A DNA stretch of 49,022 nucleotides from a virus (Duplodnaviria; Caudoviricetes). Positions 20,942 through 40,154 of this stretch are shown piece after piece. The DNA lies in IMG/VR virus record IMGVR_UViG_3300037195_000203, positions 1-49,022 of that record; one strand, given 5' to 3'. Every line of letters starts with the position of its first letter. Position 1 is the stretch's first letter. A program made the position numbers and the translations under genes. Under the pieces are notes generated by a model. The model saw only the letters and a list, made by a program, of their open reading frames with translations, ran no database searches and was not told where the DNA came from.

Positions 20942-23020
20942 ATGTCTTCATCTAACAAGCAAGTAATCGCAGCAATAGCTAACTCTATCTCAACTGGTAT
21001 TGAAGCTGAAATTAACCAACAACGTCATGATGCTAACGATCGCATTGGAGCGCGGGAAGTAGCTCGTTCGTACATCAATGACAACTTATCTTCAATGCCA
21101 GAGCTAGTAACTGGTAAATATATTGTATCTTATCTAGACAACCGTGGTGAGAAGCAGTCTAAGGTACAGTCTAAGAACTTAGCTGTATGGTGTGTTGTAC
21201 TGCAAACTACTATTGAGACTGGCCATACAACAGAGGTGTTATTAGCATCTATTCTTATGGACTGGGCAAAGGATGAGTTCAATGAAGAGTGGGACAAGAA
21301 AGATACTCAAACCCTATGTCTTAAGTTTATTGAACATATGCGTGACTTGTGGATACTATCTGATAAACGTACCACTATTCAGTACGTCGATGAAGAGGGT
21401 GAAACCCAGACGGGTAAAGTTACAAAGTTGTGCCAGTCGTTCTTAGAACTCATGATGGATATTACGAAACATCTACGTTCTAACTCTCATATGTTGTGTC
21501 GTCCTTTGGTTAACCAACCCATGGACTGGACTGATAACCTCAATGGTGTCGGTACTAACGCTGGACTTAAACTCATCAAGGGCAACCCTGCTACTGGTGA
21601 TGCTATAGCCCAACCAGTACTTGATGCTGTAAACACACTACAAGCTGTTAAGTTCATTGTAGCACCTGCTATGATTGATACAGCTTATGACCTACTGGAT
21701 AACGCTGACTATGAAACAGTTGAAGAAGAACGGATGTACACCGAGATTACCTTACCTCGATACGAGAAAGAAAGTTTCTTCTTTCCAGTTACGATGGATT
21801 CACGTGGTCGTATGTACTATCGAGGAGGACTACTTACACCTCAAGGAACTGACTTCTGTAAAGCAGCATTCCAGTTCGCAGAGTCTATGCCTCTTGGATC
21901 TACTGGTCTTGATGCGATTTGTTTGCATGTTGCTAATTGCCTTGGTCATGACAAGCTTAGTTATAATGATAGGCTCGCTTGTATTGAGCAGTACATTGAC
22001 TGTGGTGACTTTGATGCTATCAATGATCACATTGATGTCGCTACTCGCTGGCCTAAGTCGGATGTGTTTCAAGCAACTGTTGCAATATTGGAACTAAAGC
22101 GCATCCTATTGTTAATTGAAAGAGGTGATGCTGTGTGTGATATACAGTCGAACCTTGTTTGCCATCAAGATGGTACGTGTAATGGTTTACAACATATGTC
22201 TGCTATTACTCGTAACTATGAGACAGCTAAGACAGTTAACTGCACAGCTAGTACTCACGATGATGATCCTCTGGACATCTATGGTATCGTTGCTACTGAA
22301 GCTACTAAGTCTAAAGCTCTATCGCCTGAAGCTGTGAAGCTTATGATGAAGTACGGACGTTCTATGGCTAAAGATGGTGTAATGATTACTGGCTATGGTG
22401 CTGGTGAAGTTACCGTACAGAATGGGGTATACAAATTCCTCGTTTCTAAGCACGAGAATGGGGCTGTGGCCAACGAAATTGGTAAAGCCTATGTGGAAGC
22501 CATGCAGTTTAAAGCTGCCGCTGTGAAGACGCTCACGAAGGCTGTGAAGAGTCGTGTTGAATCTGCTTTAGAGTTTGGACGCGAGAAGTTCCAATGGACT
22601 ACAGCAGATGGTTTTGTGGCTACTACAGAGTACAGAGACCTAGAAGTTAACAGAGTACGTGCGGGTGTGTTCAATGCATTAGTACGTAACATGCATCCAC
22701 TACCATTAGATGAAATTAAATCAATAGGGGCAATGGCTCCTAACTTCATACACAGCATTGATGCTACACACCTACGTATGGTGGTTAATGGTTGTGGTCA
22801 CGATCTTGTAACAATACATGATTCCATTGGCTCACATGCAGCTACATACTTTGATACAGCGACAGTAATTCGTAAAGAATTCGTAGCAGTACATGAGTAT
22901 GATGCATTAGAGAACCTATGTAAAAACATGGGTGTTGGTTCAAATCAAGTACGTACTCCGAAGTTTCGTGGTACCTACGACATTAACGAGGCACTAGAGT
23001 CCTCATACATCTTTTCATAG
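20942..23020 (+). CDS. Single-subunit T7-type RNA polymerase 1 (early, compact, thumb-truncated)
   Basis: DSRGRMY; motif A HQDGTCNGLQH; motif B RSMAKDGVMITGYG; PNFIHSIDATH; motif C IHDS; C-terminal YIFS. Confidence 0.93.
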   Translation: MSSSNKQVIAAIANSISTGIEAEINQQRHDANDRIGAREVARSYINDNLSSMPELVTGKYIVSYLDNRGEKQSKVQSKNLAVWCVVLQTTIETGHTTEVLLASILMDWAKDEFNEEWDKKDTQTLCLKFIEHMRDLWILSDKRTTIQYVDEEGETQTGKVTKLCQSFLELMMDITKHLRSNSHMLCRPLVNQPMDWTDNLNGVGTNAGLKLIKGNPATGDAIAQPVLDAVNTLQAVKFIVAPAMIDTAYDLLDNADYETVEEERMYTEITLPRYEKESFFFPVTMDSRGRMYYRGGLLTPQGTDFCKAAFQFAESMPLGSTGLDAICLHVANCLGHDKLSYNDRLACIEQYIDCGDFDAINDHIDVATRWPKSDVFQATVAILELKRILLLIERGDAVCDIQSNLVCHQDGTCNGLQHMSAITRNYETAKTVNCTASTHDDDPLDIYGIVATEATKSKALSPEAVKLMMKYGRSMAKDGVMITGYGAGEVTVQNGVYKFLVSKHENGAVANEIGKAYVEAMQFKAAAVKTLTKAVKSRVESALEFGREKFQWTTADGFVATTEYRDLEVNRVRAGVFNALVRNMHPLPLDEIKSIGAMAPNFIHSIDATHLRMVVNGCGHDLVTIHDSIGSHAATYFDTATVIRKEFVAVHEYDALENLCKNMGVGSNQVRTPKFRGTYDINEALESSYIFS

Positions 23021-23028
23021 GAGATATT

Positions 23029-23211: not shown

Positions 23212-23218
23212 ACTTAAT

Positions 23219-23721: not shown

Positions 23722-23800
23722 AAGTATTGTAAGTCTTCAGAAAGCCTCTCTACAACGGAGACCATAGCTCTAGTTGAAGGCTTACAGTACTTTTTTTTTT
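23722..23800 (+). terminator. 19-bp stem-loop followed by T10 (terminator and/or RNase III site)
   Basis: AAGTATTGTAAGTCTTCAG pairs with TTGAAGGCTTACAGTACTT using three G-U pairs; T run at 23791-23800. Confidence 0.6.
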
Positions 23801-23801
23801 A

Positions 23802-24010: not shown

Positions 24011-24032
24011 CCAAATTCATTAAGGAGATACT

Positions 24033-24263
24033 ATGAAACAGACATTAAAAGCAAACGCAGTTTTTCCAGAAACAAATCTAACAGCACGAGGTAAAGAAGG
24101 TCCACGACATCCAGAGAGTTTTACTGGTGCTAATCGTACTGAATATAATCATAGTACTCATGGTACAGATAACTGGCGTGAACGTCATAACAATAAACCA
24201 GTACTTATAACACGCAGAGCTGTTACAGGTACATACGCAAACAGGATGGGATACAATGTATAA
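24033..24263 (+). CDS. Hypothetical protein
   Basis: TAAGGAG RBS. Confidence 0.65.
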   Translation: MKQTLKANAVFPETNLTARGKEGPRHPESFTGANRTEYNHSTHGTDNWRERHNNKPVLITRRAVTGTYANRMGYNV

Positions 24264-24411
24264 ATTAACCAAAACAGAAAGAAAGTTAGCAAAGAAATCC
24301 CCGAAACATTTACAAGCAGCCAAAGATTATAAACAACAAATAATTAATAACGGCTACGTGAAGATTGAAGCACTAATCTCGTCTTACCTAGACAGAGGTT
24401 GTACTCCATAG
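24256..24411 (+). CDS. Small basic protein (51 aa), not in the ORF track
   Basis: Overlaps the upstream stop; MYKLTKTERKLAKKSPKHLQ... Confidence 0.5.
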   Translation: MYKLTKTERKLAKKSPKHLQAAKDYKQQIINNGYVKIEALISSYLDRGCTP

Positions 24412-24488
24412 AGAAGTAGGTTCTTCTCGTCGACGAGCTGACCCGTTAGACTAGCTCACTAACATAACGACACATACAGGAAAAATAT

Positions 24489-24947
24489 ATGTCAGAAGTA
24501 GAAGCAACACCAGCGTTCGATTTAGGCGCACTAGCAGCACTAGCAGTAGTAAACAATAACAAAGCAGGTAGCGGTGGTGTTCCATCATTCAAGCTAAGTA
24601 TTGAAGCTGCCCGTGACGCTATCGTTTGTAAGAACGGCAACCGTCGCCAAGTAGAAGGTGCTCCACAAGCACTAACATTAAGTCTTGGTCGTGTAACTCT
24701 TGATCTATCAGCAGTAGGTGTAAAGAATGCTACCCGCATTAACGTACCTGAAGCAGATGTAGAGAACTACACAGGTCAACTACTTGCAGCAGTGCAAGCA
24801 GGTATCTTTGATGATGCTATTAAAGCCGCTCAGTTCAAAGCTGACCCAGCTAACCGTAAACCTGTAGAGAAGGTTGTGGTAACGGAAGATCAACTAGATC
24901 CTCCAGCAGATGTAGACCTTGATGCTATCGACTTGGAAGAGTTGTAA
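24489..24947 (+). CDS. Hypothetical protein with acidic C-terminal tail (possible ssDNA-binding or transcription cofactor)
   Basis: Tail EDQLDPPADVDLDAIDLEEL; codon usage resembling highly expressed genes; followed by a hairpin. Confidence 0.7.
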   Translation: MSEVEATPAFDLGALAALAVVNNNKAGSGGVPSFKLSIEAARDAIVCKNGNRRQVEGAPQALTLSLGRVTLDLSAVGVKNATRINVPEADVENYTGQLLAAVQAGIFDDAIKAAQFKADPANRKPVEKVVVTEDQLDPPADVDLDAIDLEEL

Positions 24948-24958
24948 GCTTTACCTTT

Positions 24959-24978
24959 AGGGAGTGTAACAGCTCCCT
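24959..24978 (+). terminator. Hairpin after the acidic-tail gene
   Basis: AGGGAGT-GTAACA-GCTCCCT; weak U-tract. Confidence 0.45.
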
Positions 24979-24989
24979 TAGTTAAATAA

Positions 24990-25056
24990 TTAGTATACTT
25001 AGACATGTGGACGGTGGTGGGTATTGTTTAGGAGTCCACAGCTCTAAGTATATTGA
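24990..25056 (+). promoter_or_regulatory. Long interrupted stem (RNase III-like)
   Basis: TAGTATACTTAGA/TCTAAGTATATTG plus TGTGGAC/GTCCACA. Confidence 0.6.
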
Positions 25057-25070
25057 CTAGAGGAAGTATT

Positions 25071-25331
25071 ATGGTACATTTAAGAGAAGTAACTAAGAAG
25101 AAAACGGCTCATAGAATTTTGTATGATGCACTAAGTCCAGAACATTACGCACAATATTGTAGAGATGTTAATAAAATGAGTCCTAGGGCAATGATGGAAA
25201 GCAAACCTCATCATATCCTAAATTATACTACGGATTTATTAGATGTTTGGACCACTTATTGGCAACCTATTTATTATCAATTAAAGGAAGGAACTTATGT
25301 TTGGGAAGGAACAACCACATATCAACAATGA
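25071..25331 (+). CDS. Hypothetical protein (probable start 25071)
   Basis: GAGG RBS before ATG 25071. Confidence 0.55.
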   Translation: MVHLREVTKKKTAHRILYDALSPEHYAQYCRDVNKMSPRAMMESKPHHILNYTTDLLDVWTTYWQPIYYQLKEGTYVWEGTTTYQQ

Positions 25332-25399
25332 AGACGATGTAGGTGATCTCATTAAAGAGATACACAACAAAGAGCAAATAACCTTAGAGGTTCAAGAGA

Positions 25400-26197
25400 A
25401 TGTCATGGTTAGAGACAGCAAAGAACCTACCAGTAGGACACAAGACAAGAGCTGATTGCCCTGAATGTGGAGCTGGTACTAACACTAACGCTGCTATTGT
25501 TAACCATTCACACAAAGCATACAGTTTATATTGTAATGCATGTGGAGCTAACCCCTTTGAACTAAAAGGTAAGTTATCATTAACAGAACTAGCACACATA
25601 AGGAGCTTAAATGAGCACGCTAAACAGCCATTACGAAGCATTGCATTACCACGAGACTTCAGTACCGACATCCCAAGAGAAGGAAGAAGTTGGCTCTACA
25701 AGGCTGGAATTACAGAGTCTATCTGGCGAGAGTATAATATCGGCTATTCAGAAGCTATGCGAAGAGTTGTGCTCCCAGTATACAACAAAGCAGGTAATCT
25801 TATATGGTTCCAGTGCAGAGCAGTTCTTGAAGGACAGAAGCCTAAGTATATACAACCTAGCAGAGATAGAAGTGAAGTCTTGTTTTACAGTAGAAGAGAT
25901 AAAACTGGCGATAGCAAAATTGTATTGGTTGAAGACATTATGTCAGCCATTAGAGTGGGAAAGCAGACACCTACCGTATCGCTCCTTGGAACAAAAATTT
26001 CAAGCTATCAAGCAAACATCTTATCACAGTACAACACCGTATATACGTGGCTTGATAGCGACAGAGCAGGAGTTAAAGGTGCAGCACTCATTAGAAAGCG
26101 TCTTGGACTTACTACAGATGTTAGAAACATCACGTCTAGTAAAGATCCCAAGTACTTAACAGACAACAAGATAAGAGAGAAATTAAATGAAAGTTAA
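25400..26197 (+). CDS. DNA primase (Zn finger plus TOPRIM)
   Basis: CPECG...CNACG; PKY; LVEDIMSA; WLDSDRAG; KDPK. Confidence 0.92.
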   Translation: MSWLETAKNLPVGHKTRADCPECGAGTNTNAAIVNHSHKAYSLYCNACGANPFELKGKLSLTELAHIRSLNEHAKQPLRSIALPRDFSTDIPREGRSWLYKAGITESIWREYNIGYSEAMRRVVLPVYNKAGNLIWFQCRAVLEGQKPKYIQPSRDRSEVLFYSRRDKTGDSKIVLVEDIMSAIRVGKQTPTVSLLGTKISSYQANILSQYNTVYTWLDSDRAGVKGAALIRKRLGLTTDVRNITSSKDPKYLTDNKIREKLNES

Positions 26198-26375
26198 ATT
26201 TACGTTAGGTGTTACTAAACCTTGGTTAACACCTAACAAGGAATATGATGTTATACCTGAAGAAGAAGCACTCGCGTTCTCTATAATAGATGACGTTGGT
26301 GATGAAATATATTGTTTATTTGAAGATTGTGTATATCTAAATGGTGGGGATTGGGAGATCGTAGAAGATGATTAA
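26187..26375 (+). CDS. Small hypothetical protein (SH3-like beta domain)
   Basis: LTPNKEYDV...IIDDVG...WEIV. Confidence 0.65.
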   Translation: MKVKFTLGVTKPWLTPNKEYDVIPEEEALAFSIIDDVGDEIYCLFEDCVYLNGGDWEIVEDD

Positions 26376-26451
26376 TTTCACAACATTAGATTTACTATTT
26401 ATATTCGCAACAGTAATGTGCATATTTATTGCACTAGGAGCAAAAGGATGA
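26368..26451 (+). CDS. Single-TM micro-protein (27 aa), not in the ORF track
   Basis: MINFTTLDLLFIFATVMCIFIALGAKG; overlaps both neighbours and fills the gap exactly. Confidence 0.5.
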   Translation: MINFTTLDLLFIFATVMCIFIALGAKG

Positions 26452-27038
26452 AGATAAAAACATATGCAAGTAATTGGTATATTACAGCTAATAAAGAGTA
26501 CGAAGTAACAGAAGAAATGACTGGGCTGTGGCGGATAATAGATGATGCGGGCAGACCCATACACATCGGTAAAGACTATAGTTCACACACTAATTCCGTA
26601 TGGGAAGTAGTATCACAAATAGCACCACATGAAGGTCGTGAATTAGACCTAGTACTAGCAGGTACAAAACCTATGGGACTCATTGAGAAAGCTAAAGACC
26701 CAGAGCAATACCAACGCCTATATGACATAGCAGACCTCAAACGTTTACGCTTTATGTTAGTAGAAGAGGGTACAGTAGTCTTTGCATTACTACCTAACAG
26801 GGGATTACTAGTTGATTACTATAACCTCGTTAATGGTAAGACTGTAGTTAAAGATAATAAGGAATACCAAACCTTAATGGGTAGACTCTTTGGATATACT
26901 GAAGAAGAAATCACAGCATTTATTAACGCAGACATACAATGTAACTGTAGTAACTGTCAGGGTGTACAAGGTAAAGCACCCGTGATTAAAGCTTCAGCTA
27001 GAGCGTTATCACCAGCATTTGCGGTAGGTGGGGTATGA
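26448..27038 (+). CDS. Two-domain hypothetical protein; N-terminal domain paralogous to 26187..26375
   Basis: ITANKEYEV...IIDDAG...WEVV, then HEGRELDLVLAGTKP...GRLFGY; start 26448 has GGAG RBS. Confidence 0.7.
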   Translation: MKIKTYASNWYITANKEYEVTEEMTGLWRIIDDAGRPIHIGKDYSSHTNSVWEVVSQIAPHEGRELDLVLAGTKPMGLIEKAKDPEQYQRLYDIADLKRLRFMLVEEGTVVFALLPNRGLLVDYYNLVNGKTVVKDNKEYQTLMGRLFGYTEEEITAFINADIQCNCSNCQGVQGKAPVIKASARALSPAFAVGGV

Positions 27039-27511
27039 AAACATTTACAGCCGGGGAACGTATGGAACAGTGTCGTATAGAAGAAGCTTACAAACAAGGT
27101 GCAGTTATTGAAAAACGTAAACCCGATGCATTCGGTAGACGATATAGAACATGGTACATTGGTGAACGAACACCAGCATTTAATTGGAAAGAAGGTTGGG
27201 AATATAGAGTTAAAGAACCTGTTACACATAGACCATCAGCAGCACCTATACATAAAACTAAGGAACAAAAAATGAAAACAGAAACAATTACAACAGTTAG
27301 CGGTTACGATGTTAATACAATTAGTATAACACAATTAGTTAACCTAAAAACAAAAGCAGAAGTATCAGTAAACGCCTGTAATGCCAACATAGAACACGCA
27401 CAACAGCAGATCGAAAATCATAAAGCTGCTATTAAAGACCAACGTCAGAAGCTTAAAGAAACCAAAGCTTCTCTAGTAGTACTTAACCGAGCCATTAGAG
27501 AGAAAGTATGA
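27035..27511 (+). CDS. Hypothetical protein with C-terminal coiled coil
   Basis: ATGA overlaps on both sides. Confidence 0.65.
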   Translation: MKTFTAGERMEQCRIEEAYKQGAVIEKRKPDAFGRRYRTWYIGERTPAFNWKEGWEYRVKEPVTHRPSAAPIHKTKEQKMKTETITTVSGYDVNTISITQLVNLKTKAEVSVNACNANIEHAQQQIENHKAAIKDQRQKLKETKASLVVLNRAIREKV

Positions 27512-28761
27512 TTGAGATAGCCTTATTACGTATTATAAAATATAAGGCTCAATTCGATAAGATATGTGGCTACATACCAGATGCCAGTATGGATAAGACA
27601 ACAGTCTCCATAGCTAAAGATATTGGTAAATACTTTGAATTATGTCCTACAGAAGAGGTTATTAACTTCGAAGTATTTAATAAGATGTTCTTTGAGAATT
27701 GGCATAAGAAACTGAAGGATTCAGACCAAGATTACTTCAAGAAAGTAATTAAACGCATGGAAGAAGATGAGTCAGAAGAAATCACAGCAATGATGATTAA
27801 TAGCCTTATCGAATTAGAAGCCGCCACAAACGTAGCTAACCTTGTTAGTCAGTATGAATCAGGAGAGGAGATTGAATTCCTCAGAGAGTTACATGCATTA
27901 ACAGACGAAGCTAATAAGAAGACAGAGTTTAACACCAGTATGGAGTTTGCAGACGTAGACGACAATACCATAGCTGATGAAGGCGATGACGAAGGATTAA
28001 CATGGCCTTGGGACTGTATGAATGAGACATACAGAAACATACATGGTGGTGATGCACATATCGTAGCAGCAAGGCCAGGGATGGGTAAGACTACATTCTT
28101 GACACAACTTAATGCACATATTGCACCACAGTTAGAAGAACATAAGTTTATCGTATGGTTCAATAACGAATCAAAACGACAAAGGATCATGGCGCACCAA
28201 ATCAAGAGTGCGTTAGGTAAGACAAGTAGTGAGCTGAAAGAATTAAAAGATGCAGGTACGATGCGCGAAGAGTACATCAAAGCCGTAGGACATCCATCAA
28301 AGATCCGTGTATTTGACGTACATGGTATGGCACATTACCAAATAGACGAGATGTTAGAAAAGCTTGGGCATGAGAATATAGGACTGATCGTATTTGATAT
28401 GCTAGATAATTTACGTTATCCAGTAAAAGAAGGTACGAGAGAAGACCAACGACTTGAATCATTGTACAAGTGGGCTAGAGAGCTTGGAGTTAAACTTGAC
28501 TGTCCCACCTTTCAAACAAGCCAAGTAAGTAACGAGGGAGCAAACCTGTTATTTCCATTGGAAGGTATGTTGAAAGACAGCAAGACTGGCAAGCAAGGTG
28601 CCTGTGATAACATCATAATGATAGGTTGTGAAAGTGATGATCCACTGGCTGCGGATGTAAGAGCTTTTAGTATGCCTAAAACAAAAACAAAGAGAGAAGG
28701 TCAACCTGATCTCCGTGAGGAGAACATGAGACTTAACTCAGATATAGGACGCTACGTATGA
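27508..28761 (+). CDS. DnaB-like replicative helicase
   Basis: Walker A AARPGMGKTT; FNNE; VFDMLD; TSQ; DSKTGKQGACD. Confidence 0.93.
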   Translation: MIEIALLRIIKYKAQFDKICGYIPDASMDKTTVSIAKDIGKYFELCPTEEVINFEVFNKMFFENWHKKLKDSDQDYFKKVIKRMEEDESEEITAMMINSLIELEAATNVANLVSQYESGEEIEFLRELHALTDEANKKTEFNTSMEFADVDDNTIADEGDDEGLTWPWDCMNETYRNIHGGDAHIVAARPGMGKTTFLTQLNAHIAPQLEEHKFIVWFNNESKRQRIMAHQIKSALGKTSSELKELKDAGTMREEYIKAVGHPSKIRVFDVHGMAHYQIDEMLEKLGHENIGLIVFDMLDNLRYPVKEGTREDQRLESLYKWARELGVKLDCPTFQTSQVSNEGANLLFPLEGMLKDSKTGKQGACDNIIMIGCESDDPLAADVRAFSMPKTKTKREGQPDLREENMRLNSDIGRYV

Positions 28762-28964
28762 GTGCTTTAGATGTACAAGAAGGTGGTAATCATTATAAGA
28801 ATATGAAGATACAACCTTTAGAATATACATTAGCTAACGAATTAGGTTTCTGCGAAGGTAACATAATTAAATACGTTAGTAGACACAAATCAAAGAATGG
28901 TATAGAAGATCTAAAGAAAGCTCGTCACTACATTAACCTATTAATAGAATTAGGAAGCAAATGA
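28758..28964 (+). CDS. DUF3310 / T7 gp1.7-like nucleotide kinase family protein
   Basis: GGNHY...IQP...FCEGNIIKYVSR..KNGIEDLKKARHY. Confidence 0.85.
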   Translation: MSALDVQEGGNHYKNMKIQPLEYTLANELGFCEGNIIKYVSRHKSKNGIEDLKKARHYINLLIELGSK

Positions 28965-31243: not shown

Positions 31244-31258
31244 CTAAAGGAGTAAACA

Positions 31259-31459: not shown

Positions 31460-31835
31460 ACATTTTAAACAAGCAACAGATCCTATGTTAGCTTGCCCTT
31501 GTTGTGGTAAAGGTGGCCCAAGTGTAGCAGTACTTATGATACTAGAATATATCAAAGACTACTTCAATGGAGCTACAGTACATGTAACAAGTTGCGGTAG
31601 ATGTATACCTTATAATAGATCTATAGGTAGTACAGATGGATCACAGCATGTAGTTAAAGAAGAAAATAACTGGACAGCAGAGGCAGTAGATATTGTAGTA
31701 GACGGGCATACACCAGAAGATGTACGTATGGCTTTATACAGACTACCTTATGCACATTTGTTAGGTATTGGTTACTACAGAGATGAATTCACACATATAG
31801 ATGCGCGCGGTTACGCTGCAAGGTGGGATGGGTAA
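31446..31835 (+). CDS. Peptidase M15 family Zn peptidase (probable endolysin)
   Basis: CPCCG, TSCGRC..YN..IG...SQH, AVDI, IGYY..FTHIDAR. Confidence 0.88.
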   Translation: MNESRHFKQATDPMLACPCCGKGGPSVAVLMILEYIKDYFNGATVHVTSCGRCIPYNRSIGSTDGSQHVVKEENNWTAEAVDIVVDGHTPEDVRMALYRLPYAHLLGIGYYRDEFTHIDARGYAARWDG

Positions 31836-31921
31836 TGTGTAAACCACCAACTAAACAAGACCACATACTATTTACAGTATTTATTATGTACTGCGTAATA
31901 TGTGTAGCGTGTATATTATGA
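31835..31921 (+). CDS. Single-TM micro-protein (28 aa), not in the ORF track
   Basis: TAATG coupling; ILFTVFIMYCVICVACIL. Confidence 0.5.
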   Translation: MCKPPTKQDHILFTVFIMYCVICVACIL

Positions 31922-32001
31922 TAGAATTATTAGTAGGTTTTGCTATAGGTTTTGCAGCAAGTATGATAATAGACTTCTTACTATGGAGAAAATATGTCTA
32001 A
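31918..32001 (+). CDS. Single-TM micro-protein (27 aa), not in the ORF track
   Basis: ATGA coupling; MIELLVGFAIGFAASMIIDFLLWRKYV. Confidence 0.5.
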   Translation: MIELLVGFAIGFAASMIIDFLLWRKYV

Positions 32002-34321
32002 TGTAATGAGCTTCGATTTAGAAGTAGAGAACCATATATACAATAAACGACTAGCAGGGCCATTTGATGAACGCAATTATATTGTACAGATCGGGTACTC
32101 TATCAATGGTGGACAGCCACAAGAGAAGTACTATAACGAGTGGCACAGAGAGAACGTCTTACCAGATCTTTCGGACATTGATGTACTCGTTGGTTTTAAC
32201 ACTAAGTTTGACCTATTATGGGTATGGAAAGAACCTGAATTAATTAAGTTCCTCAAGAAAGGTGGAACTATATATTGTGGACAGTTAGCAGAATACCTTA
32301 TGGGTGGTATGCAACAAGAAGTCCAGATGTGTAGTATGAACCAAATAGCAGAAAGCTATGGTGGCGGTTGTAAGATAGATGCAGTAAAGGAGATGTGGGA
32401 AGATGGTTATAAGACATCAGAGATACCACAAAATCTATTAACAGATTACCTAATAGGTGACGGTAAAGTTATCGTAGGTGACGTACATAACACATGGCTT
32501 ATCTATAAAGGCCAGATCAAAAGGATGCTACAAGAACATCCTAAAGAATTTAGAACAATGATGAAGTTTCGTATGGATGGTTTATTAGCCACCACCGAGA
32601 TGGAATACAACGGAATGTACGTTGATGCTGTAAAAGGTGCAGAGATGCGCGAAGGTTTAGTAACCGAGTTAGCAGCAGCACAAAAAGAATTAGAACAATT
32701 TATACCAGAGTTACCTCCTGAATTAGTATTTAACTGGAACAGCCCATTACAAAAATCATGTTTGATATTTGGTGGCACAGCTAAGTATGAGAAATGGGTA
32801 CAACATACAGATGGTAATGGAAACGGTTTATATGCTCAGAAGAAAGAAGCATGGCCTCTATTCACCTGTAACGGCTTTACAGAGCCAGTAGACCCTCACT
32901 CTGGTGAAGTAATACTAGCAGGTAAGTTATACGTTATGCCTATACCAGAGGGAACTGAAGGAGCTTTTAAGCATAAGGATCGCTGGTATTTAGCTCAGAA
33001 CAAATTTAAAGGTGGTAAAAACGCTGGTCATGGTAAATTTAAGCAGGTATCAGTACCAGACTATGACAAACCAAAAGGTGCTAAGAAAGATCATTACTTC
33101 ACCTTTGATGGTTACGTTCAACCAAAGCCACAGTGGAAAGGAGATTCCACGGATGCATATGATGAACCCTTGTACTCGACAGCAGCAGACGTAATAGACG
33201 ATCTTAAACATTTAGGTCTACCATTTACTGACGCTTTGTCTAAGCAAACAAGTATAGCTAAAGACCTTGGCACATATTATTGGTCTGTAGATAAGCAAGG
33301 TAAGAAGAAGGGAATGCTGGTCTTAGTAGAAACTGAGACAGGACTCATACATCATAAACTTAATCACACGTCTACGGTAACATCTCGTTTGTCATCTAGC
33401 GACCCTAACTTACAGACACTACCTCGGGGTAATACATCGGACGTTAAGAAGATGTTCGTTACCAGATTCGTGGGCGGTATGTTAGCAGAGATAGATTACT
33501 CTCAATTAGAAATAGTTGTACAGGGTGTATTAACTAACGACCCACAATTACGTCAAGATCTTAAAGATGGTATAGATTTCCATATCATGAGACTATGTGA
33601 AAAATTACCAGATTATACATATAGCCAACTATGGGATATGCATCATGTACAAGGTGTAGGTTGGGTAGCTGTAGAACGTACAGGATCTAAGAACTTTAGT
33701 TTCTTACGTGCCTATGGTGGTGGTGTAGCAGCAATCATGTTACAAACAGGATTATCTAAACAAGATGTAGAGATACTCATAAAAGCAGAAGAAACACGTT
33801 TCCCCGGTATAGTTAAATTTGATAAACGTCTTGAATCACATATAGATGGTACTGCTAAGGCATGCGGTAAACTATTCATAGATGGTGTAATGTTTAATCA
33901 AAAGGCGGCACATTGGGACAGTCCTACAGGGACTCGCTATATGTGGAAGCAAGAGATAGCACCTAAATTCTTACAAGATAAAGGTAAGTATACAAGCTTC
34001 TCACCAACTACACGTAAAAACTATCCAGTTCAAGGGTTTGGTGGAGAGATAGTACAAACAATGTTAGGTAAAGTATTCAGGTACTTTGTAGCTAATGATA
34101 TGTTCAATGGAGATGTCCTATTAATTAACACTGTACACGATTGTGTATTGTTAGATGGTAGAGATGGTATCCTACAGACAGTAGCTAAAGAGGTACAAAC
34201 AATACTAGAAGATGTACCTAACACATTCAATAACGCATATGAAAAATTAAATATAGATGTCCCGTTCCCATGTGAAACAGAAATAGGTAAAGACCTATTC
34301 CACATGACGACATTACATTAG
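31994..34321 (+). CDS. DNA polymerase family A with 3'-5' exonuclease
   Basis: FDLE, GFNTKFDL, TSRLSSSDPNLQ, IDYSQLE, RTGSKNFSFLRAYG, NYPVQG, VHD. Confidence 0.96.
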   Translation: MSNVMSFDLEVENHIYNKRLAGPFDERNYIVQIGYSINGGQPQEKYYNEWHRENVLPDLSDIDVLVGFNTKFDLLWVWKEPELIKFLKKGGTIYCGQLAEYLMGGMQQEVQMCSMNQIAESYGGGCKIDAVKEMWEDGYKTSEIPQNLLTDYLIGDGKVIVGDVHNTWLIYKGQIKRMLQEHPKEFRTMMKFRMDGLLATTEMEYNGMYVDAVKGAEMREGLVTELAAAQKELEQFIPELPPELVFNWNSPLQKSCLIFGGTAKYEKWVQHTDGNGNGLYAQKKEAWPLFTCNGFTEPVDPHSGEVILAGKLYVMPIPEGTEGAFKHKDRWYLAQNKFKGGKNAGHGKFKQVSVPDYDKPKGAKKDHYFTFDGYVQPKPQWKGDSTDAYDEPLYSTAADVIDDLKHLGLPFTDALSKQTSIAKDLGTYYWSVDKQGKKKGMLVLVETETGLIHHKLNHTSTVTSRLSSSDPNLQTLPRGNTSDVKKMFVTRFVGGMLAEIDYSQLEIVVQGVLTNDPQLRQDLKDGIDFHIMRLCEKLPDYTYSQLWDMHHVQGVGWVAVERTGSKNFSFLRAYGGGVAAIMLQTGLSKQDVEILIKAEETRFPGIVKFDKRLESHIDGTAKACGKLFIDGVMFNQKAAHWDSPTGTRYMWKQEIAPKFLQDKGKYTSFSPTTRKNYPVQGFGGEIVQTMLGKVFRYFVANDMFNGDVLLINTVHDCVLLDGRDGILQTVAKEVQTILEDVPNTFNNAYEKLNIDVPFPCETEIGKDLFHMTTLH

Positions 34322-34329
34322 GAGAGAGC

Positions 34330-35166
34330 ATGACCGAAGAAGTAACACAACTAGACTTTGCAGCAATGGGTACAGCAGCAGCAGAGACAGAAGATTTAAC
34401 AAAAGACGCACCCGCATTTGAACGTAAGACATTAGAGAAAGGCCCATGCCTACTACGTCTACGTACCTACATTGAGACAGGTAGACATGCTAGTAGGAAT
34501 CCAGCACACAAACCAGCTCTAGGTGTTAGTCTAGTATTTGAAGTAAGTTCAAAGAAACATCTTATAGACATTGATGGTAATTTAGTGCCTTCCTTATTGT
34601 ACATTGACCTAAATAAAGGTAGTACAGGAACTAGCCGTTACCGTAAGTTATTCAACTCTATGAATAAAGCGTTAGGTGGTAAACATAAGAACTTCCTTAC
34701 TATGATTAATCAGCCACTTAAAGGTGAGATTACTCATAACATTACTGACGAGGGTACAGAGAAAGCTAAGACTTGGGCTAACATAGATGACAAAGGTGTA
34801 TGGTCATTCGTACCAGCAGAGCGCATTATCTTAGATGAAGATGGTGAAGAGGAGTCACGTACTCCATTGAAAGTACGTGAACTACACGGTACACCTACAG
34901 CATTCCTATGGGAGAACGCAGGTCTAACAGATGATCAAGTAATAGCTATGTGGAATTGTATCCACATCGAAGGTACTCGTACTTCTAAAGACAAAGATGG
35001 TACAGAGAAAGTAGTATCAAAGAACACCTATCAAGAGAAGATCATGGCTAACTTGGAGTGGGAAGGTTCACGTACTCAAGCTCTAACACAAGAGAACATC
35101 CTAGATGAATCTTTGTTAGAAGAAGAGATCGAAGTATCAGATGAAGAAGACGTACCAACACTATAG
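34330..35166 (+). CDS. Replication-module protein with acidic tail (probable SSB)
   Basis: Position between polymerase and exonuclease as in phiKMV-like phages; tail LLEEEIEVSDEEDVPTL. Confidence 0.6.
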   Translation: MTEEVTQLDFAAMGTAAAETEDLTKDAPAFERKTLEKGPCLLRLRTYIETGRHASRNPAHKPALGVSLVFEVSSKKHLIDIDGNLVPSLLYIDLNKGSTGTSRYRKLFNSMNKALGGKHKNFLTMINQPLKGEITHNITDEGTEKAKTWANIDDKGVWSFVPAERIILDEDGEEESRTPLKVRELHGTPTAFLWENAGLTDDQVIAMWNCIHIEGTRTSKDKDGTEKVVSKNTYQEKIMANLEWEGSRTQALTQENILDESLLEEEIEVSDEEDVPTL

Positions 35167-35174
35167 AGGCTAGT

Positions 35175-36176
35175 ATGGACTTTGCAAAAATAGGTGCAAA
35201 CGTCAACAGCTCAGAGAGTTCTACTTTTATTAAAGGTAGGACTCTTCAATTAGATGCAGACTTCTTGAGTTATGACTGCGCTAATACAGAAGAATCTATA
35301 GCTGAGAACGTTAAACACATCAGAAATAAAGTTAAAATGCATATGCGTCAAGCAGGTGCAGAATTTTGTAACCTCCATCTAACAATGGGGATGAAAGGTG
35401 GTCGGGAGCAAATGGCTTCAGTAAAACCTTACCAACACAAACGTGGTGCAGATAGAGATCCAGCACGTACAGAAAGAAAGGTAGCTCTACGTAATGAAAT
35501 GGCTAACTTCAACTTCCGTACTTGTAAGCCAGTGGTTAACCTATATCAAGAAGCAGATGATTCATTGACACAATATCAAGTAGCTGATGTAAAGAACTCA
35601 GTACTTATGTCAGGTGATAAAGATCTCTGGATGGTAGAAGGATTACATTGTGATTATAAGACAGGCCGTTTATGGTCTACGCAAGGTTACGGTAAGACAG
35701 AGTATAGAGATACAGTGAAGTCAGATGGTACATTTGCACCTAAGTTGATAGGTGAAGGTACTTCATGGTTCTGGTATCAAGTAGTGATGGGAGATACAGC
35801 AGACACAATCCCGGGCTTACCAAAGTTGTCAGGTAAATTAGCAGAGAAGTATGTACCAAACAAGAAACCCAACCCTAAACGTAAGGCTATTGCTTGTGGC
35901 GAAGCTAAAGCGCATGCTATGTTAAAAGACGTTAAGGATGATAGACAGGCTTATCAGAGAGTATTTGATGCTTATTGTCAGTGGTATGGTGATACAGCTA
36001 AAGCTATGTTCTTTGAACAAGCATTCCTACTTTGGATGCGTAAGACAGAAGATCCTTGTGATGTATTAAAGTTTCTTAAACCACTAGGTTTTAACTACAC
36101 TCTAACTACTGATCAGTCACAAAGATTACTTAGGTATGCAGAGTTTAAAGCTATACAAGAGGAGCGTAACGAATGA
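35175..36176 (+). CDS. 5'-3' exonuclease (T7 gp6-like)
   Basis: LDADF, EADD, SGDKDL, MGDTADTIPGL. Confidence 0.92.
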   Translation: MDFAKIGANVNSSESSTFIKGRTLQLDADFLSYDCANTEESIAENVKHIRNKVKMHMRQAGAEFCNLHLTMGMKGGREQMASVKPYQHKRGADRDPARTERKVALRNEMANFNFRTCKPVVNLYQEADDSLTQYQVADVKNSVLMSGDKDLWMVEGLHCDYKTGRLWSTQGYGKTEYRDTVKSDGTFAPKLIGEGTSWFWYQVVMGDTADTIPGLPKLSGKLAEKYVPNKKPNPKRKAIACGEAKAHAMLKDVKDDRQAYQRVFDAYCQWYGDTAKAMFFEQAFLLWMRKTEDPCDVLKFLKPLGFNYTLTTDQSQRLLRYAEFKAIQEERNE

Positions 36177-36421
36177 TATTTGCAGTACCACAAGGTGGAG
36201 AAGGTTCAGAAAATGACAAGTCAACTACATACCATATAATTGATACAGAATCTACTTGTCCACGTACAAACAAACGTAAGTTAAAGATGTACTTAACAGA
36301 GATGGGTGTACCCACACGAGAGCATAAGACTGTCCTCAAGAAGCTAGGCTTCTGGGGTGCAGCTCTCGCACCCGCTACTCAGGAAGAGATTCTAAGAGCA
36401 GCACACAGGGTACTACAATGA
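36173..36421 (+). CDS. Hypothetical protein
   Basis: ATGA overlaps on both sides; GAGGAG RBS. Confidence 0.65.
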   Translation: MIFAVPQGGEGSENDKSTTYHIIDTESTCPRTNKRKLKMYLTEMGVPTREHKTVLKKLGFWGAALAPATQEEILRAAHRVLQ

Positions 36422-37299
36422 AAATACAGAAGGCTTTACACCTCTACAAAGAGTTAGAGAAGAAGACTCCTAAATGCTACAACAAAGAATACGCAGTATT
36501 CGAAAAGTATGATGGTTGGTATGGTTATATAGACATCGTAGATGGTGAGATGACTAATATTAAATCAGCAGCAGATAGAGAGATACCTTCTTTAGTACAG
36601 TTTAGTAAGCAGATAAATGAACTAGCAGACGTAGGTAACGTATCTGGTCGATTAATATTTGAGATACTTCTAGAGAGTGTGCCTGAATTTAGTATTCTGA
36701 ATGGGATCCTGAACAGATCTAAAGGCGATTGTAGCGCACCTGATCCATATATAATGGTTCATGACTTCGTGCCTGTAGGCGAACTGAAGCCCTTAGCTGG
36801 CGCATTTCAAAACAGGTATTTTGAGTTACAAGTCTTTGTACCTAAGTTCAACAACCCAGCCGTACGTAGAGCGCCTGTACTAGATTACATTAGTGATGTA
36901 GATAAAGCACAACAGTTAGCAGAGTATATCTGGGATGCTGGTGGCGAAGGTGTGATACTGAAGGAACTTTTAGCTCATTATCAATGGGGTAAACGTAACT
37001 GTACTTTAATGAAGATTAAAGAAGAGGTTACACAAGATCTCCTTGTAGTAGGTATGTACAAAGGTGCAGGTAAGTATGCTGGTACATTAGGTGGTTTAGT
37101 AGTAGCTAATAAAGCAGGTATTACACATCGTGTAGCGGGTATGTCTGACGCAGAACGAGACAAGTGGTGGAAGACTCCAGAGTTTATCATGGGTAAAGTA
37201 GTAGAAGTTAAAGCTATGAAAGAATTACCTAATGGTTCATTAAGAGAACCACGCTTCAAATGTGTTAGATATAACAAAAACAAAGGGGATATTGATTAG
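36418..37299 (+). CDS. ATP-dependent DNA ligase
   Basis: EKYDG, GEGVILK, MKIK, GSLREPRF. Confidence 0.93.
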   Translation: MKIQKALHLYKELEKKTPKCYNKEYAVFEKYDGWYGYIDIVDGEMTNIKSAADREIPSLVQFSKQINELADVGNVSGRLIFEILLESVPEFSILNGILNRSKGDCSAPDPYIMVHDFVPVGELKPLAGAFQNRYFELQVFVPKFNNPAVRRAPVLDYISDVDKAQQLAEYIWDAGGEGVILKELLAHYQWGKRNCTLMKIKEEVTQDLLVVGMYKGAGKYAGTLGGLVVANKAGITHRVAGMSDAERDKWWKTPEFIMGKVVEVKAMKELPNGSLREPRFKCVRYNKNKGDID

Positions 37300-37367
37300 T
37301 GGAATTAATACTCTTTATATTCATCTTGTTAGTAATAGCACAGGCATTTAAGAAAAATGACGAATAG
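37299..37367 (+). CDS. Possible single-TM micro-protein (22 aa, GTG start)
   Basis: MELILFIFILLVIAQAFKKNDE; fills the ligase-endonuclease gap. Confidence 0.4.
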   Translation: MELILFIFILLVIAQAFKKNDE

Positions 37368-37737
37368 AATGAAGGTGAGCCAATTAGGTTCAGTAGTTCA
37401 GCTATTAACAAAGAAGCAGGGAGGGAAGTGCGCTGTATGTGGCTTCCCTTTCACACAGCGCGATAGACCAGTACTAGATCATGACCATGATACAGGTAGG
37501 GTACGTGGTGTACTTCATAATAGCTGCAATGGCGCAGAAGGTAGAATAAAATCAAAAGCGAAGATGGGTCATACAGGTGTTAGTGCAGCAGACTATGTGA
37601 TAGGTTTAGGTAAATACTTAGAACTACATAAGAAGCCACAAACTCGTTTGATACATCATACACATTTAACAGAAGACGAGAAGCGTTTAAAGAGAAACGC
37701 TAAAGCTCGTAAAAGGCGTAGAGCTAAGAAGGCATAA
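37357..37737 (+). CDS. Endonuclease VII family Holliday junction resolvase
   Basis: QGGKCAVC...LDHDHDTGRVRGVLHNSCNGAEG. Confidence 0.92.
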   Translation: MTNRMKVSQLGSVVQLLTKKQGGKCAVCGFPFTQRDRPVLDHDHDTGRVRGVLHNSCNGAEGRIKSKAKMGHTGVSAADYVIGLGKYLELHKKPQTRLIHHTHLTEDEKRLKRNAKARKRRRAKKA

Positions 37738-40154
37738 TGACAGTAGATGAGCAGATACAAGAGCAAATCCTATGGGAACATGAGTGCATACGCAGAGGTT
37801 CTGATAGGTACTACGCACAACAAGATAGATTAAAGTCATCTGGACAAGGTGATCAAGCAGACAATATGAGTCTATTACTCAGGGATCGTATTGAAGATGT
37901 AGCACTGGAGTTAGAGACTATACATAAGACTACAGTAGGTAAAGGTGCAGGTACGAACTGGCTACTAGACAGAGCTTTAGTAGAAGGTGACTACCATAGA
38001 TTAGCTTTCATAGGTATGAAGGTTGTCTTTCAGGTAATGCTCATGCCACGTAATAATACAGTATTAAAGATTTGTTTGGATATAGCCTCAAGGTTAGAAG
38101 CAGATGTTAAATGTATTATCTTTGAAGCTATGCACCCTAACTACTACGCAGTGGTTAATAACTCATTTAAAACCCAGAAAGTTAAGGACTATAAACATCG
38201 CCATAAGGTTATGATGTTAAAGTACAACGAGTTCGATATAGGGTGGCATGATTGGACACAAGCCAACAAAGCACATATAGGCTCTAAAGTACTGTTAGCA
38301 ATAATGAATGTATTTGACGATATTATCTATGTCCATAAACAATGGGAGCGTGGTAAAGGTACAGCAATATTAAAGACTACGGAAGAGTTTGAAGTATGGA
38401 CAGAAGAGTTTGAAAAGGTACGTTCTATAATGCATCCATTCTTACTTCCTCTGAAGATACCACCTAGAGCATGGACTCAAGGCAAAGGTGGTGGTTATTA
38501 CACGCCTCAGATGACAGCTCGCCTACCTTTCGTTAAGACAAGAGGTAAGGCACATACTGACTATGTTAAACAACATCCTATGGAACATCATACAGATGCT
38601 ATCAATAAGATGCAACGTACAGCATGGAAGGTAAATAACGAAGTACTGGAAGTACAGAAATTAGTTTATGAGAAAGGACTGAAGGTTGGTATACCTAGTT
38701 CACAAGAACTAGTAGTACCTAGTTTCCCTGAACATCTTAAAAGCATAGAGAAAGATACACTGACAGAAGCACAGAGAAAGGAAGTTAGTAATTGGAAAGC
38801 TAGAGCTAAAGCTGTACATGGTAAAGAGCAAGAACGTAAAGGACAAGTCTTAGCGTTCATGCAATCACATGCATTAGCTAAGGAACTAGAAGACTGGGAA
38901 GAGTTCTATTTCGCATACAACGCAGACTTTAGAGGTCGTATCTACTGTGCAACGTCAGGTTTAAGCCCACAAGGTGCTGATGCTGCTAAAGGCTTATTAC
39001 AATTTGCCAAAGGTGTAGAGTTAGGTGAGTCAGGAGTATATTGGTTAGCCGTACAAGGTGCTAATACATATGGTAATGACAAACTTAAGTATGACGATAG
39101 AGTTCAATGGGTTATGGATAACGAGGATTATATACATAGAGTAGTAGATGATCCAATAAGCGCCAGAGAGTTTTGGGGTAATGCAGATAAGCCTTACCAG
39201 TTCTTAGCATTCTGCTTTGAATGGGCTAGATCAGATTATGGTAGAGATCCTAAAACAAAAGGTTATTTACCTGTAGGTTTAGATGGTTCATGTAATGGAC
39301 TACAACACTTCTCGGCTATGTTACGAGATGACGTGGGAGCAAAAGCTACCAATTTATGTAATAGTGAACTACCTTCAGACATATATCAAGATGTAGCAGA
39401 TGTTTGTATGAAGAAGTTACAGGCAGAGTTTGATGACTGTGGAGATGCGCGGGCTAAGATATGGTTACGTGTAGGAGTTAATAGGAAATGTGCTAAACGT
39501 CCTGTAATGACATTACCATATGGAGCTACACAAGAGTCAGCAAGACATTACATAATGGAATATGTACAAGCTAATTGGGGTAAGTTTAATCTATCAGAGA
39601 AACATCAATGGGAGTTCGCAGTCTACTTAACGCCTATCTTATGGGAGTCCATAGGAGAAGTAGTAGTAGCGGCTAGGGCAGCAATGTCATGGTTGAAGAA
39701 GTGCGTAGGCCCAGAATATTCTCATTGGGTAACACCATTAGGTTTCCCAGTATACCAGTACTACAAGAAAGTAGAGTCAATACTCATTGCTACTATGTTA
39801 AACGGTTCACTAAGTCTATCACTTAAAGACGTAGAACAACCAGGACTACCTAATAGTTACGCACAGAAGAATGGTGTATCACCAAACTTTGTACATAGCA
39901 TAGATAGTACACACATGGTAATGACTATTAATGATACAGACTTTCATAGTTATGCAATGATACATGATGACTTTGGTACACATGCTGGTAGAACAGAAGA
40001 GTTATTCACCTCTATTAGAAAAACATTCAAAGAACTATATACAAAGTATGACCCATTACAAGAATGGGCAGAACAAGTAGGTAAAGAGTGTCCACTAATA
40101 AAAGGTGTTTACGATATTAACGATATTACAGATGCCGCCTACTTCTTCGGGTAG
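37737..40154 (+). CDS. Single-subunit T7-type RNA polymerase 2 (late; phiKMV-like position)
   Basis: GGGYY, DFRGRIY, LDGSCNGLQHF, RKCAKRPVMTLPYG, PNFVHSIDSTH, IHDDFG, C-terminal YFFG. Confidence 0.96.
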   Translation: MTVDEQIQEQILWEHECIRRGSDRYYAQQDRLKSSGQGDQADNMSLLLRDRIEDVALELETIHKTTVGKGAGTNWLLDRALVEGDYHRLAFIGMKVVFQVMLMPRNNTVLKICLDIASRLEADVKCIIFEAMHPNYYAVVNNSFKTQKVKDYKHRHKVMMLKYNEFDIGWHDWTQANKAHIGSKVLLAIMNVFDDIIYVHKQWERGKGTAILKTTEEFEVWTEEFEKVRSIMHPFLLPLKIPPRAWTQGKGGGYYTPQMTARLPFVKTRGKAHTDYVKQHPMEHHTDAINKMQRTAWKVNNEVLEVQKLVYEKGLKVGIPSSQELVVPSFPEHLKSIEKDTLTEAQRKEVSNWKARAKAVHGKEQERKGQVLAFMQSHALAKELEDWEEFYFAYNADFRGRIYCATSGLSPQGADAAKGLLQFAKGVELGESGVYWLAVQGANTYGNDKLKYDDRVQWVMDNEDYIHRVVDDPISAREFWGNADKPYQFLAFCFEWARSDYGRDPKTKGYLPVGLDGSCNGLQHFSAMLRDDVGAKATNLCNSELPSDIYQDVADVCMKKLQAEFDDCGDARAKIWLRVGVNRKCAKRPVMTLPYGATQESARHYIMEYVQANWGKFNLSEKHQWEFAVYLTPILWESIGEVVVAARAAMSWLKKCVGPEYSHWVTPLGFPVYQYYKKVESILIATMLNGSLSLSLKDVEQPGLPNSYAQKNGVSPNFVHSIDSTHMVMTINDTDFHSYAMIHDDFGTHAGRTEELFTSIRKTFKELYTKYDPLQEWAEQVGKECPLIKGVYDINDITDAAYFFG

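Follow-up and report, generated by a model that had tools for sequence, protein, structure and literature searches.

A compact early and a late-slot T7-family RNA polymerase in the genome of an uncultured marine T7-like phage

Genome and module layout

The window, that is, the whole 49,022-nt stretch of DNA analysed here, constitutes one whole genome in circularly permuted form, whose ends overlap by 77 nt (positions 1-77 equal 48944-49020). It belongs to an uncultured marine T7-like phage that encodes two intact RNA polymerases (RNAPs), named here E, for the early one, and L, for the late one. The traits of Autographivirales are present: T7-like portal, capsid, tail tube and terminase, an own RNAP, genes on one strand and a size of 40-50 kb. 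The features are collected in Table 1. Among the small early ORFs, where none of the three scanned matched a PHROG, a 59-nt repeat with a UUCG hairpin occurs twice (19561-19619 and 19866-19924). Neither tRNA nor Rfam searches gave a match in the window.

Table 1. Features of the window, in order of position
Feature	Position	Strand	Basis
Late module, second part, running on over the circular join	148..18875	+	PHROG 342, tail-fibre PHROGs, PF22530
Content of this part: internal virion proteins (one of 2378 aa), tail fibres, terminase subunits	large subunit 13491-15506	+	
Right-end AT-rich site (...CATATATAAGGGG)	18940..18968	+	similar site at right end of relatives
Probable genome end/terminal-repeat region, limits approximate, by analogy	19104..19283	+	TCCCCCATAG motif at 19162
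Conserved ATATGTCTC(C/T)TTT box and partial second copy, likely concatemer-junction pause signal	19284..19334	+	
Small early ORFs upstream of E	19395..20743	+	ORF list
E, compact early T7-family RNAP with short thumb, 692 aa	20942..23020	+	open ORF, PF00940, catalytic motifs, model
Long hairpin then ten T, terminator-like, 0.77 kb past E	23722..23800	+	folding vs shuffles
Middle (replication) module	24033..37737	+	Pfam; exonuclease and gene order from R8W match
Middle genes, first half: primase, helicase, ribonucleotide reductase, dUTPase, M15 peptidase	25400, 27508, 28961, 30595, 31446	+	Pfam
Middle genes, rest: DNA polymerase A, exonuclease, ligase, endonuclease VII	31994, 35175, 36418, 37357	+	exonuclease: R8W match
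L, standard late-slot T7-family RNAP, 805 aa, between endonuclease VII and virion genes	37737..40154	+	open ORF, PF00940, PHROG 414
Late module, first part	40105..48943	+	Pfam/PHROG, terminator scan, synteny with R8W and H4/4
Content of this part: short tail-fibre-like protein, portal, scaffold, major capsid, tail tube proteins, internal virion proteins	portal 41073, scaffold 42602, major capsid 43416	+	
Terminator downstream of major capsid	44596-44623		terminator scan

Anatomy and descent of the two polymerases

Both genes are open on the plus strand and, as the original prediction held, each carries the full set of T7-type motifs when aligned to T7 RNAP. E matches PF00940 (6e-51) and PHROG 414, with D286-x-R-G-R290, D410 (T7 D537), R473/K477/Y485/G486 (R627/K631/Y639/G640), H604 and H626/D627 (H811/D812). 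L matches the same families (PF00940, 7e-95; PHROG 414, L residues 5-804, 816 profile positions), with D397xRGR, D516, R583/K587/Y595/G596, H720 and H743/D744. All catalytic residues of E, including both catalytic aspartates, are invariant in 108/108 aligned sequences, and the 12 catalytic positions of L in 120/120; judged by these active sites, neither enzyme looks dead.

The predicted structural model of E (pLDDT 94.5) superposes on T7 RNAP with Z 40.9 and rmsd 3.3 over 613 aligned residues spanning 6-691. In the model, E has the whole T7 fold, with right hand, N-terminal domain, intercalating hairpin and specificity loop, the last two corresponding in position to beta-hairpins at 139-163 and 559-590. 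Within the loop, E568 (107/108), R573 (108/108) and G575 (105/108) are kept. The description of both enzymes as complete was borne out for L, which is full length, and for E as regards this modelled fold, with a qualification for two regions of E. At T7 positions of about 151-190, which we take to be the limits of subdomain H, E aligns 2 residues against 40-41 in T7 and L, in a sequence alignment near 20% identity, leaving about 40 residues without an aligned partner. Also, the thumb span, from anchor to anchor, is 57 residues in E against 102 in T7, 109 in L and 77 in Xp10; over 108 E sequences it is 54-73 residues, about half the T7 length, and the full-length T7 thumb (330-410) is absent. 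The thumb stabilises elongation (PMC11617373), and with so short a thumb E may not be a plain processive mRNA polymerase.

E and L are separately descended T7-family RNAPs. They share 29% identity across 457 C-terminal columns only, with N-terminal parts lacking a significant match, in agreement with the high divergence claimed for them. The two specificity-loop sequences that had been quoted as unrelated were also correct and lie at the position of the T7 loop; this loop is conserved among E sequences (0.59) and variable among L sequences (0.48). That E is a duplicate of L was rejected, a single clade of E plus L having p-AU 0.005. In the trees, which were built for the RNAPs only, L falls together with the enzymes of Atu_ph02, Xp10 and Anchaing (support 97/88). 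Since these are single late-slot polymerases, E rather than L is probably the add-on. This grouping, along with the endonuclease-RNAP-portal slot as in Atu_ph02, suggests that L represents the ancestral late enzyme of phiKMV type, and E seems to have been gained in a single event at the clade's base.

E is under purifying selection in the relatives, with dN/dS of 0.126 between R8W and H4/4 and 0.129 between L007 and L008. Core genes range from 0.04 to 0.12, and E has the highest value of the eight genes compared (L, 0.038). Of the two, E is the faster-evolving (mean distance 0.58; L, 0.45), and their distances correlate with r 0.97 over 9 genomes and 0.87 over 18 pairs without the Vibrio group: both genes are inherited jointly across this marine phage clade. 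PhPV1.2 was excluded from the pair analyses, as it gave three matches, contains repeated blocks of genes and has an early copy of 366 aa.

Relatives and known arrangements

T7-type phages are defined by one self-made RNAP, and its placement in the early or the late slot separates the main lineages. In the window both slots are filled, as had been pointed out, and this is a real and conserved condition that we also found in cultured isolates. Both slots are likewise occupied in the Alteromonas phages R8W and H4/4 and, among Vibrio phages, in JSF7, phiV141 and 20 K-series records, as well as in 3/3 complete IMG/VR genomes tested; a scan of IMG/VR with a single sequence found nothing. In uvMED S42-C7, considered as a further double, both matches look like a single gene split over the record ends.

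The original caveat that such relatives may be deposited already was well placed, as they have been since 2017. The announcement of H4/4 in that year lists "two DNA-dependent RNA polymerases" (PMC5658483). A 2025 survey describes Autographiviridae with two RNAPs, includes H4/4 and R8W in its AG-14, as its supplement does, and suggests a division of labour, the same hypothesis as in the original prediction (PMC12361551). The arrangement itself is already published and its novelty is lower than was proposed, so the value lies in testing it and in the anatomy of E. Our analysis adds the invariance of E, its purifying selection, the co-divergence of E and L, the non-duplicate origin and the short thumb.

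The closest arrangement is that of H4/4 and R8W (Foturvirus, Autographivirales, AG-14), with the same two slots and gene order. As in the two-RNAP subgroup of AG-14, the RNAPs of the window lie before and after the replication module, and both are orthologous to those of H4/4 and R8W. Identities to these phages are 41% for E, 57-59% for L (59% to R8W gp33), 61% for capsid and 75% for terminase; in the trees, however, E of the window falls in an environmental branch, unlike E of H4/4 and R8W. Whole-genome similarity is about 18.6% to R8W and 17.3% to H4/4 (VIRIDIC-like blastn sum). ICTV sets the genus threshold at 70% intergenomic similarity at least, and at about 17-19% the window lies below it for Foturvirus. 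With about 19% similarity to R8W, its phage is probably a new genus. The text of the survey describes AG-14 as having a short extra RNAP before the structural genes, whereas here and in H4/4 and R8W the short enzyme is early and the 800-aa one pre-structural (PMC12361551). In the survey, AG-10.1 marine phages have an extra RNAP of ~650 aa; they thus also hold two RNAP genes, one of them compact, but both upstream of the replication module (PMC12361551).

The Vibrio phages JSF7 and phiV141 (Tawavirus) and the K385 series also fill both slots, with 32% (E) and 43-45% (L) identity to the window; they differ in the E specificity loop, lack the ATATGTCTC box and show genome similarity <5%. Phages of phiKMV/KP34 type and Atu_ph02 type have one RNAP between replication and virion genes, which is the slot of L (the single RNAP of Atu_ph02 included), and no early enzyme; Atu_ph02 shares the terminal-repeat motif of the window. 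In T7, one RNAP transcribes both middle and late genes. The gene 1 RNAP of T7 and SP6 occupies an early slot like E, about 1.7 kb from the left end, and has the same fold, but E is 190 aa shorter, is not near T7 or K1E in the trees, and no family of repeated promoters was found.

A relay with a small middle-gene enzyme recalls coliphage N4, whose programme uses three polymerases: vRNAP, RNAPII and host RNAP (PMC4496689). The 692 aa of E resemble the size of gp15 plus gp16 (269+404 aa), yet E is one chain from one ORF and not two subunits, its structural match is much weaker to N4 gp16 (Z 21.6) than to T7, and PF21894 matches far below cut-off. E was thus rejected as an N4 RNAPII-like enzyme. 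Within the scope of detectable similarity, which a very distant fold could escape, a six-frame search with E and L profiles and a motif check of the 2378-aa protein detected no third polymerase and no virion-borne RNAP, and the host and phage enzymes would act in the opposite order to that of N4.

Transcription signals and the proposed relay

The gene order is best read as a three-step relay, towards which we lean slightly. The host polymerase would make the compact enzyme E, E would transcribe the replication genes, and L, coded at the end of these, would transcribe the virion genes. In this way, middle transcription would have passed from the host polymerase to E, and so, probably, would the pulling-in of the DNA. 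In T7, the TE terminator stops host RNAP, and a pause of the phage RNAP after the terminal repeat triggers packaging. More weakly, on this model, a terminator after E might stop the host polymerase, and L might start at the right end, pause at the box after the terminal repeat and trigger packaging. A wider reading, to which we give a little less than even weight, is that E may be a distinct clade of minimal single-chain RNAPs (half thumb, no subdomain H) with their own conserved promoter class, running middle transcription; with L they would form a putative natural orthogonal pair, a reversed N4-style three-tier programme (host, E, L) in a T7-like phage. A clade that stably keeps both slots occupied offers a natural experiment on the handover of a transcription step from host to phage, and the cultured R8W and H4/4 make the relay testable now. 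Should E prove processive in spite of the short thumb, it would be a 77-kDa-class single-chain RNAP of interest for mechanism and in vitro transcription, with over 100 natural variants available.

Each RNAP had been expected to have its own promoter class, but neither a middle nor a late class emerged from four motif searches. Scans for T7-style families of 20-mer and 14-mer repeats within the genome gave nothing convincing in the middle or late regions among the matches listed, and neither was a convincing KP34-style short repeated promoter found near the end of L among those listed. Across genomes, only left-end motifs exceeded shuffles in the 10-11-mer scan; the best middle 11-mer (6/13 sources vs 4-5 in shuffles) is a coding remnant. 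A candidate promoter at the GHVYG codons of the scaffold gene, which precedes the capsid gene, was discarded because synonymous codons vary freely, its conservation being at protein level only. The late-slot enzyme of KP34 has only four promoters, which repeat-hunting mispredicted, so such a failure is expected (PMC6834552). No strong sigma-70 site was found at the left end of the window, and sigma-70-like sites number 31 overall, below the 46.8 of the shuffles.

The hairpin past E (-29.4 kcal/mol, z -5.6, 0/200 shuffles) is a long branched stem and not a classic short terminator. Terminator-like sites occur within 1.5 kb after E in 5/12 loci against 7/121 control windows, and are absent there in 7/12 loci, including R8W and H4/4.

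At the left end, the TCCCCCATAG motif is common to 9/13 relatives (shuffles, 6 at most) and lies within the annotated 217-bp repeat of H4/4. Judging from the circular assembly and the motif position relative to H4/4, the phage may have direct terminal repeats; in one run, the depth of the contig points to a doubled stretch of greater length. The ATATGTCTC box stands at the left end of 6/6 Foturvirus-like genomes and 0/3 Vibrio genomes; its second copy in the window is absent in two runs. The box starts at base 218 of H4/4, the first base past the repeat, and T7 has its junction signal at the same place, where the counterpart ATCTGTT starts at base 161. By analogy, this position favours the box as a likely concatemer-junction pause signal. 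The right-end AT-rich site is a candidate late/packaging promoter or protein-binding site, with no second copy within the window; as an L promoter it was rejected, since G002 and G003 have this site in common yet differ in both the L and the E loop, and it thus covaries with neither.

Four other explanations were weighed. The first, unlikely though the strongest of them, is that E is active with low processivity and has a main job other than mRNA, either the synthesis of short RNAs for opening or priming the replication origin or the pulling-in of DNA, with host RNAP transcribing the replication genes as it does in phiKMV-type phages with a single RNAP. It would suit the short thumb, but residues 6-691 of the E model can be aligned with T7 elongation complexes, the phage carries its own primase, and the terminators after E, where present, would block the host enzyme.

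A less probable possibility is that E starts at the left-end box upstream of its own gene, early and middle genes forming one unit with positive feedback, and host RNAP or packaged E making the first molecules only. The box is the sole strongly conserved multi-copy motif, always on the plus strand and upstream of E, its layout with TTTT and G is like that of phage promoters, the Vibrio phages that lack it have a different E loop, and the E loop is the more conserved one. However, its start just past the terminal repeat, as in the T7 class II pause, fits a junction pause better, in the single-RNAP Atu_ph02 the pause sequence of T7 type follows this repeat motif at a distance of 225 nt, tandem copies of the box are spaced by 19-35 nt, and C follows TTTT in 5/21 instances. 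The box as E promoter was therefore demoted to a minor rival.

We consider it improbable that E and L act on overlapping promoters, E being a booster or back-up where the host polymerase is weak or blocked. The searches above separated no promoter classes and the KP34 RNAP reads two unrelated promoters (PMC6834552), but the loops of E and L are unrelated and E is kept in 9/9 whole genomes compared over about 55% L divergence, which is unusual for a dispensable gene.

Finally, a decaying relic or a chimeric assembly is very improbable and already largely refuted: E has the highest dN/dS and no contig among those listed from independent runs spans both genes, but the active sites are invariant, the same pair occurs in cultured isolates, two other runs cover 30/30 bins between E and L and differ little there, and all three strain variants found in the two genes are synonymous.

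Two polymerase genes and their published relatives

Two DNA-dependent RNA polymerases (RNAPs) were already listed in the announcement of the Alteromonas phage H4/4 (PMC5658483). In the text of a paper on Autographiviridae groups, an extra RNAP is described for 23 members of AG-10.1 and 17 of AG-14, R8W and H4/4 being assigned to the latter, and different RNAPs are suggested to serve different genes (PMC12361551). There the short AG-14 enzyme is placed before the structural genes, whereas in the genomes examined here it is early. Nowhere does the phrase 'RNA polymerase' occur in the paper on R8W (PMC8228385), and the one on PhPV1.2 refers to several ORFs for RNAPs but offers no model (PMC13733069). 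We found no experimental study of such an RNAP pair in the open-licence literature. The two-RNAP arrangement is real, well conserved and already known: both the layout (PMC5658483) and the same relay hypothesis (PMC12361551) are in print. Our study adds a probable new genus beside Foturvirus, the window being only about 19% similar to the R8W genome, evidence for the early enzyme as a separately acquired short-thumbed family, and a variant of the junction box.

A single podophage genome, complete and circularly permuted, makes up the window: bases 1-77 recur at 48944-49020, and the + strand carries the long ORFs. The compact early RNAP (E) is located some 1.7 kb in from the inferred left end, and the standard-length one (L) is flanked by endonuclease VII and the portal module. 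As predicted, both are T7-type: alignment to T7 RNAP, taken from the T7 record, gives each of them counterparts of D537, R627, K631, Y639, G640, H811, D812 and DxRGR. Their predicted divergence also stands (29% identity over 457 columns), and profiles of both families detected no third polymerase in any reading frame of the window.

Polymerase genes and other features of the window
Feature	Position	Strand	Remarks
E	20942-23020	+	open ORF, 692 aa; PF00940 and PHROG 414 matches
L	37737-40154	+	open ORF, 805 aa; PF00940 and PHROG 414 matches
Box ATATGTCTCTTTT	19284-19334; H4/4 record 218-272		1-3 copies
Hairpin and ten T	0.77 kb after E		z -5.6
UUCG hairpin, repeated	19561-19619; 19866-19924		between early genes
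GAGC...GCTCAC hairpin	24411-24489		ahead of conserved 152-aa gene
Non-coding gaps	23800-24033; 31023-31259		230 nt, structured-looking
198-aa ORF	18279-18875		right end
Contig of run X2	19093-20002		910 nt
Internal virion protein	1773-8909		2378 aa
Internal-virion-protein ORF	48334-48943 and 1-1773		apparently crosses circular join
Ribonucleotide reductase	28961-30607		single gene
dUTPase	30595-31023		
M15 peptidase	31446-31835		

A possible transcription relay

On a slightly better than even estimate, the two enzymes would act in a relay. Host RNAP would transcribe the genes of small early proteins and E; E would transcribe the 14-kb replication module, which ends with L; and L would transcribe the virion genes and also serve packaging. 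Gene content and gene order are observed, as are conservation and ancestry, while we infer which enzyme makes which transcript. The scheme would work like the N4 relay (PMC4496689), yet the window does not look N4-type: E is a single chain, and the profile search showed no virion-carried polymerase. In agreement, the predicted model of E (pLDDT 94.5) matches T7 RNAP elongation complexes (Z 40.9, rmsd 3.3, 613 aligned, residues 6-691) better than N4 gp16 (Z 21.6) or mini-vRNAP (21.4).

The model keeps hairpins at the places of the T7 intercalating hairpin and specificity loop. Two regions of E are shortened, however. Its thumb spans 57 residues (54-73 across the E family), where T7 has 102 and L 109, and hardly any residues of E pair with T7 151-190, in an alignment of low identity. 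The thumb acts as a clamp on the elongation complex, and the H domain contributes to the RNA exit channel (PMC11617373). That E instead makes short RNAs or serves DNA entry is unlikely, but it is the alternative we take most seriously. Terminator-like sites occur within 1.5 kb after E at 5/12 loci compared with 7/121 control windows (Fisher p 0.0014), for a window size picked after viewing the data and for related loci.

The relay, as originally proposed, gave each enzyme its own promoter class, and this part of the prediction is so far not supported: motif searches of the DNA yielded no middle or late class. This is weak evidence, because KP34 has four promoters and a predicted one failed in vitro (PMC6834552). 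Scans of the window's left end gave no strong sigma-70 site; JSF7 has one. In two relatives, the genome G003 (rotated 2346, 9545) and JSF7 (rotated 1473, 9426), a non-coding element of the right end has a second copy in the middle region, ahead of the replication genes, as a candidate origin or promoter. The UUCG hairpins we take to resemble RNase III or RNA-stability sites. The GAGC...GCTCAC hairpin recurs in R8W, H4/4 and two other relatives (G002, G004), and the two gaps gave no Rfam or tRNA match.

The left-end box and the genome ends

The sole strongly conserved DNA motif is the left-end box, found in 6/6 Foturvirus-like genomes and 0/3 Vibrio ones. A longer form has 10 IMG/VR matches: five with E downstream, three that end before E and carry a related terminase, and two with neither. 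The box starts at H4/4 base 218, immediately after the annotated 217-bp repeat. The T7 terminal repeat has a length of 160, and T7 ATCTGTT begins at base 161. Atu_ph02, a single-RNAP phage, retains the T7-type sequence 225 nt past the shared repeat motif. The box sits where T7 has its concatemer-junction pause, but with a different sequence; a preprint describes the T7 element as a class II pause located in the early region (bioRxiv 10.64898/2026.02.12.705533). By this analogy we read the box as a candidate packaging pause for L. That it is instead the promoter at which E starts is a minor and rather improbable rival.

Box copy number differs among strains of the window phage (33-nt skip in runs X4 and X5). 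In run X2, the 910-nt contig has depth 144, with 65-68 on either side; a terminal repeat of some 150 bp would not account for this doubling, which is absent in X1. The 198-aa ORF has a weak helix-turn-helix match (E-value 0.1) and no PHROG match, and by eye we take it to resemble plasmid RepL-type proteins; the 100 nt past it hold about a dozen differences in all four runs compared.

History and conservation of the pair

RNAP trees were built from 69 rows (what remained of 87 once 18 fragments or near-duplicates had been removed) and 38 rows, with K1E standing for SP6, a Phikmvvirus for phiKMV, and mitochondrial RNAPs left out. In both, the E sequences form one clade and the L sequences another, and the two branch as mirror images. 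A joint E and L clade was rejected (p-AU 0.005 under LG+G4; the E stem is long and the test shares the model's bias). E and L distances correlate with r 0.97 in 9 genomes and r 0.93 in 21 pairs, 12 of which were matched only by equal length of the sequences carrying them. L clusters with Atu_ph02, Xp10 and Anchaing (support 97/88), and the only RNAP of Atu_ph02 occupies the same slot. From the sequences, L is probably ancestral and E was probably added once, then kept.

In E, the specificity loop is conserved to the same degree as the remaining protein (0.59 vs 0.60), whereas the loop of L varies (0.48 vs 0.68); this suggests that the target of E is a conserved one. Overlapping roles of E and L are improbable.

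Catalytic positions are invariant in all 108 aligned E sequences (the query and 107 of the 120 listed among 168 matches, the self match and 12 shorter or partial ones left out) and in 120/120 for L. For E, dN/dS comes to 0.126 when R8W is compared with H4/4, and to 0.129 for two environmental relatives that are closer to each other; L has 0.038 and seven other genes 0.04-0.12. The three strain variants in E and L of the window are all synonymous, and by these sequence measures both genes look alive.

A tblastn search with E against 50,697 phage records matched 2,681 places in 2,649 records, so double-place records are about 1% of those matched, most of them from the H4/4-R8W-Vibrio clade. The two-RNAP genomes sought were found: 26 of the 40 matches listed have two places per record, namely H4/4 (2 records), R8W, JSF7 (2), phiV141 and 20 Vibrio K-series records, and annotations of relatives place both RNAPs in the window's two slots. 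L was present in 4/5 tested IMG/VR contigs with full E (5 of 12 such contigs) and in 3/3 complete ones, the fifth being a fragment without the slot. A chimeric assembly, named beforehand as a refutation, is countered by this recurrence and by runs X4 and X5, neither marked as source, which cover 30/30 bins between the genes; none of the pieces listed from these runs bridges the whole stretch. A relic or artefact is very improbable. In the PhPV1.2 record (PQ511476), blocks of genes are repeated and the early RNAP is partial; this record is possibly misassembled.

Residues about 61-200 of the internal virion protein are weakly staphylococcal-nuclease-like (PF00565, E-value 0.03, below cut-off), and its long insert is unmatched in relatives. 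Where the window has its single reductase gene, dUTPase and M15 peptidase, R8W carries two reductase subunits, thymidylate synthase and pyrophosphatase.
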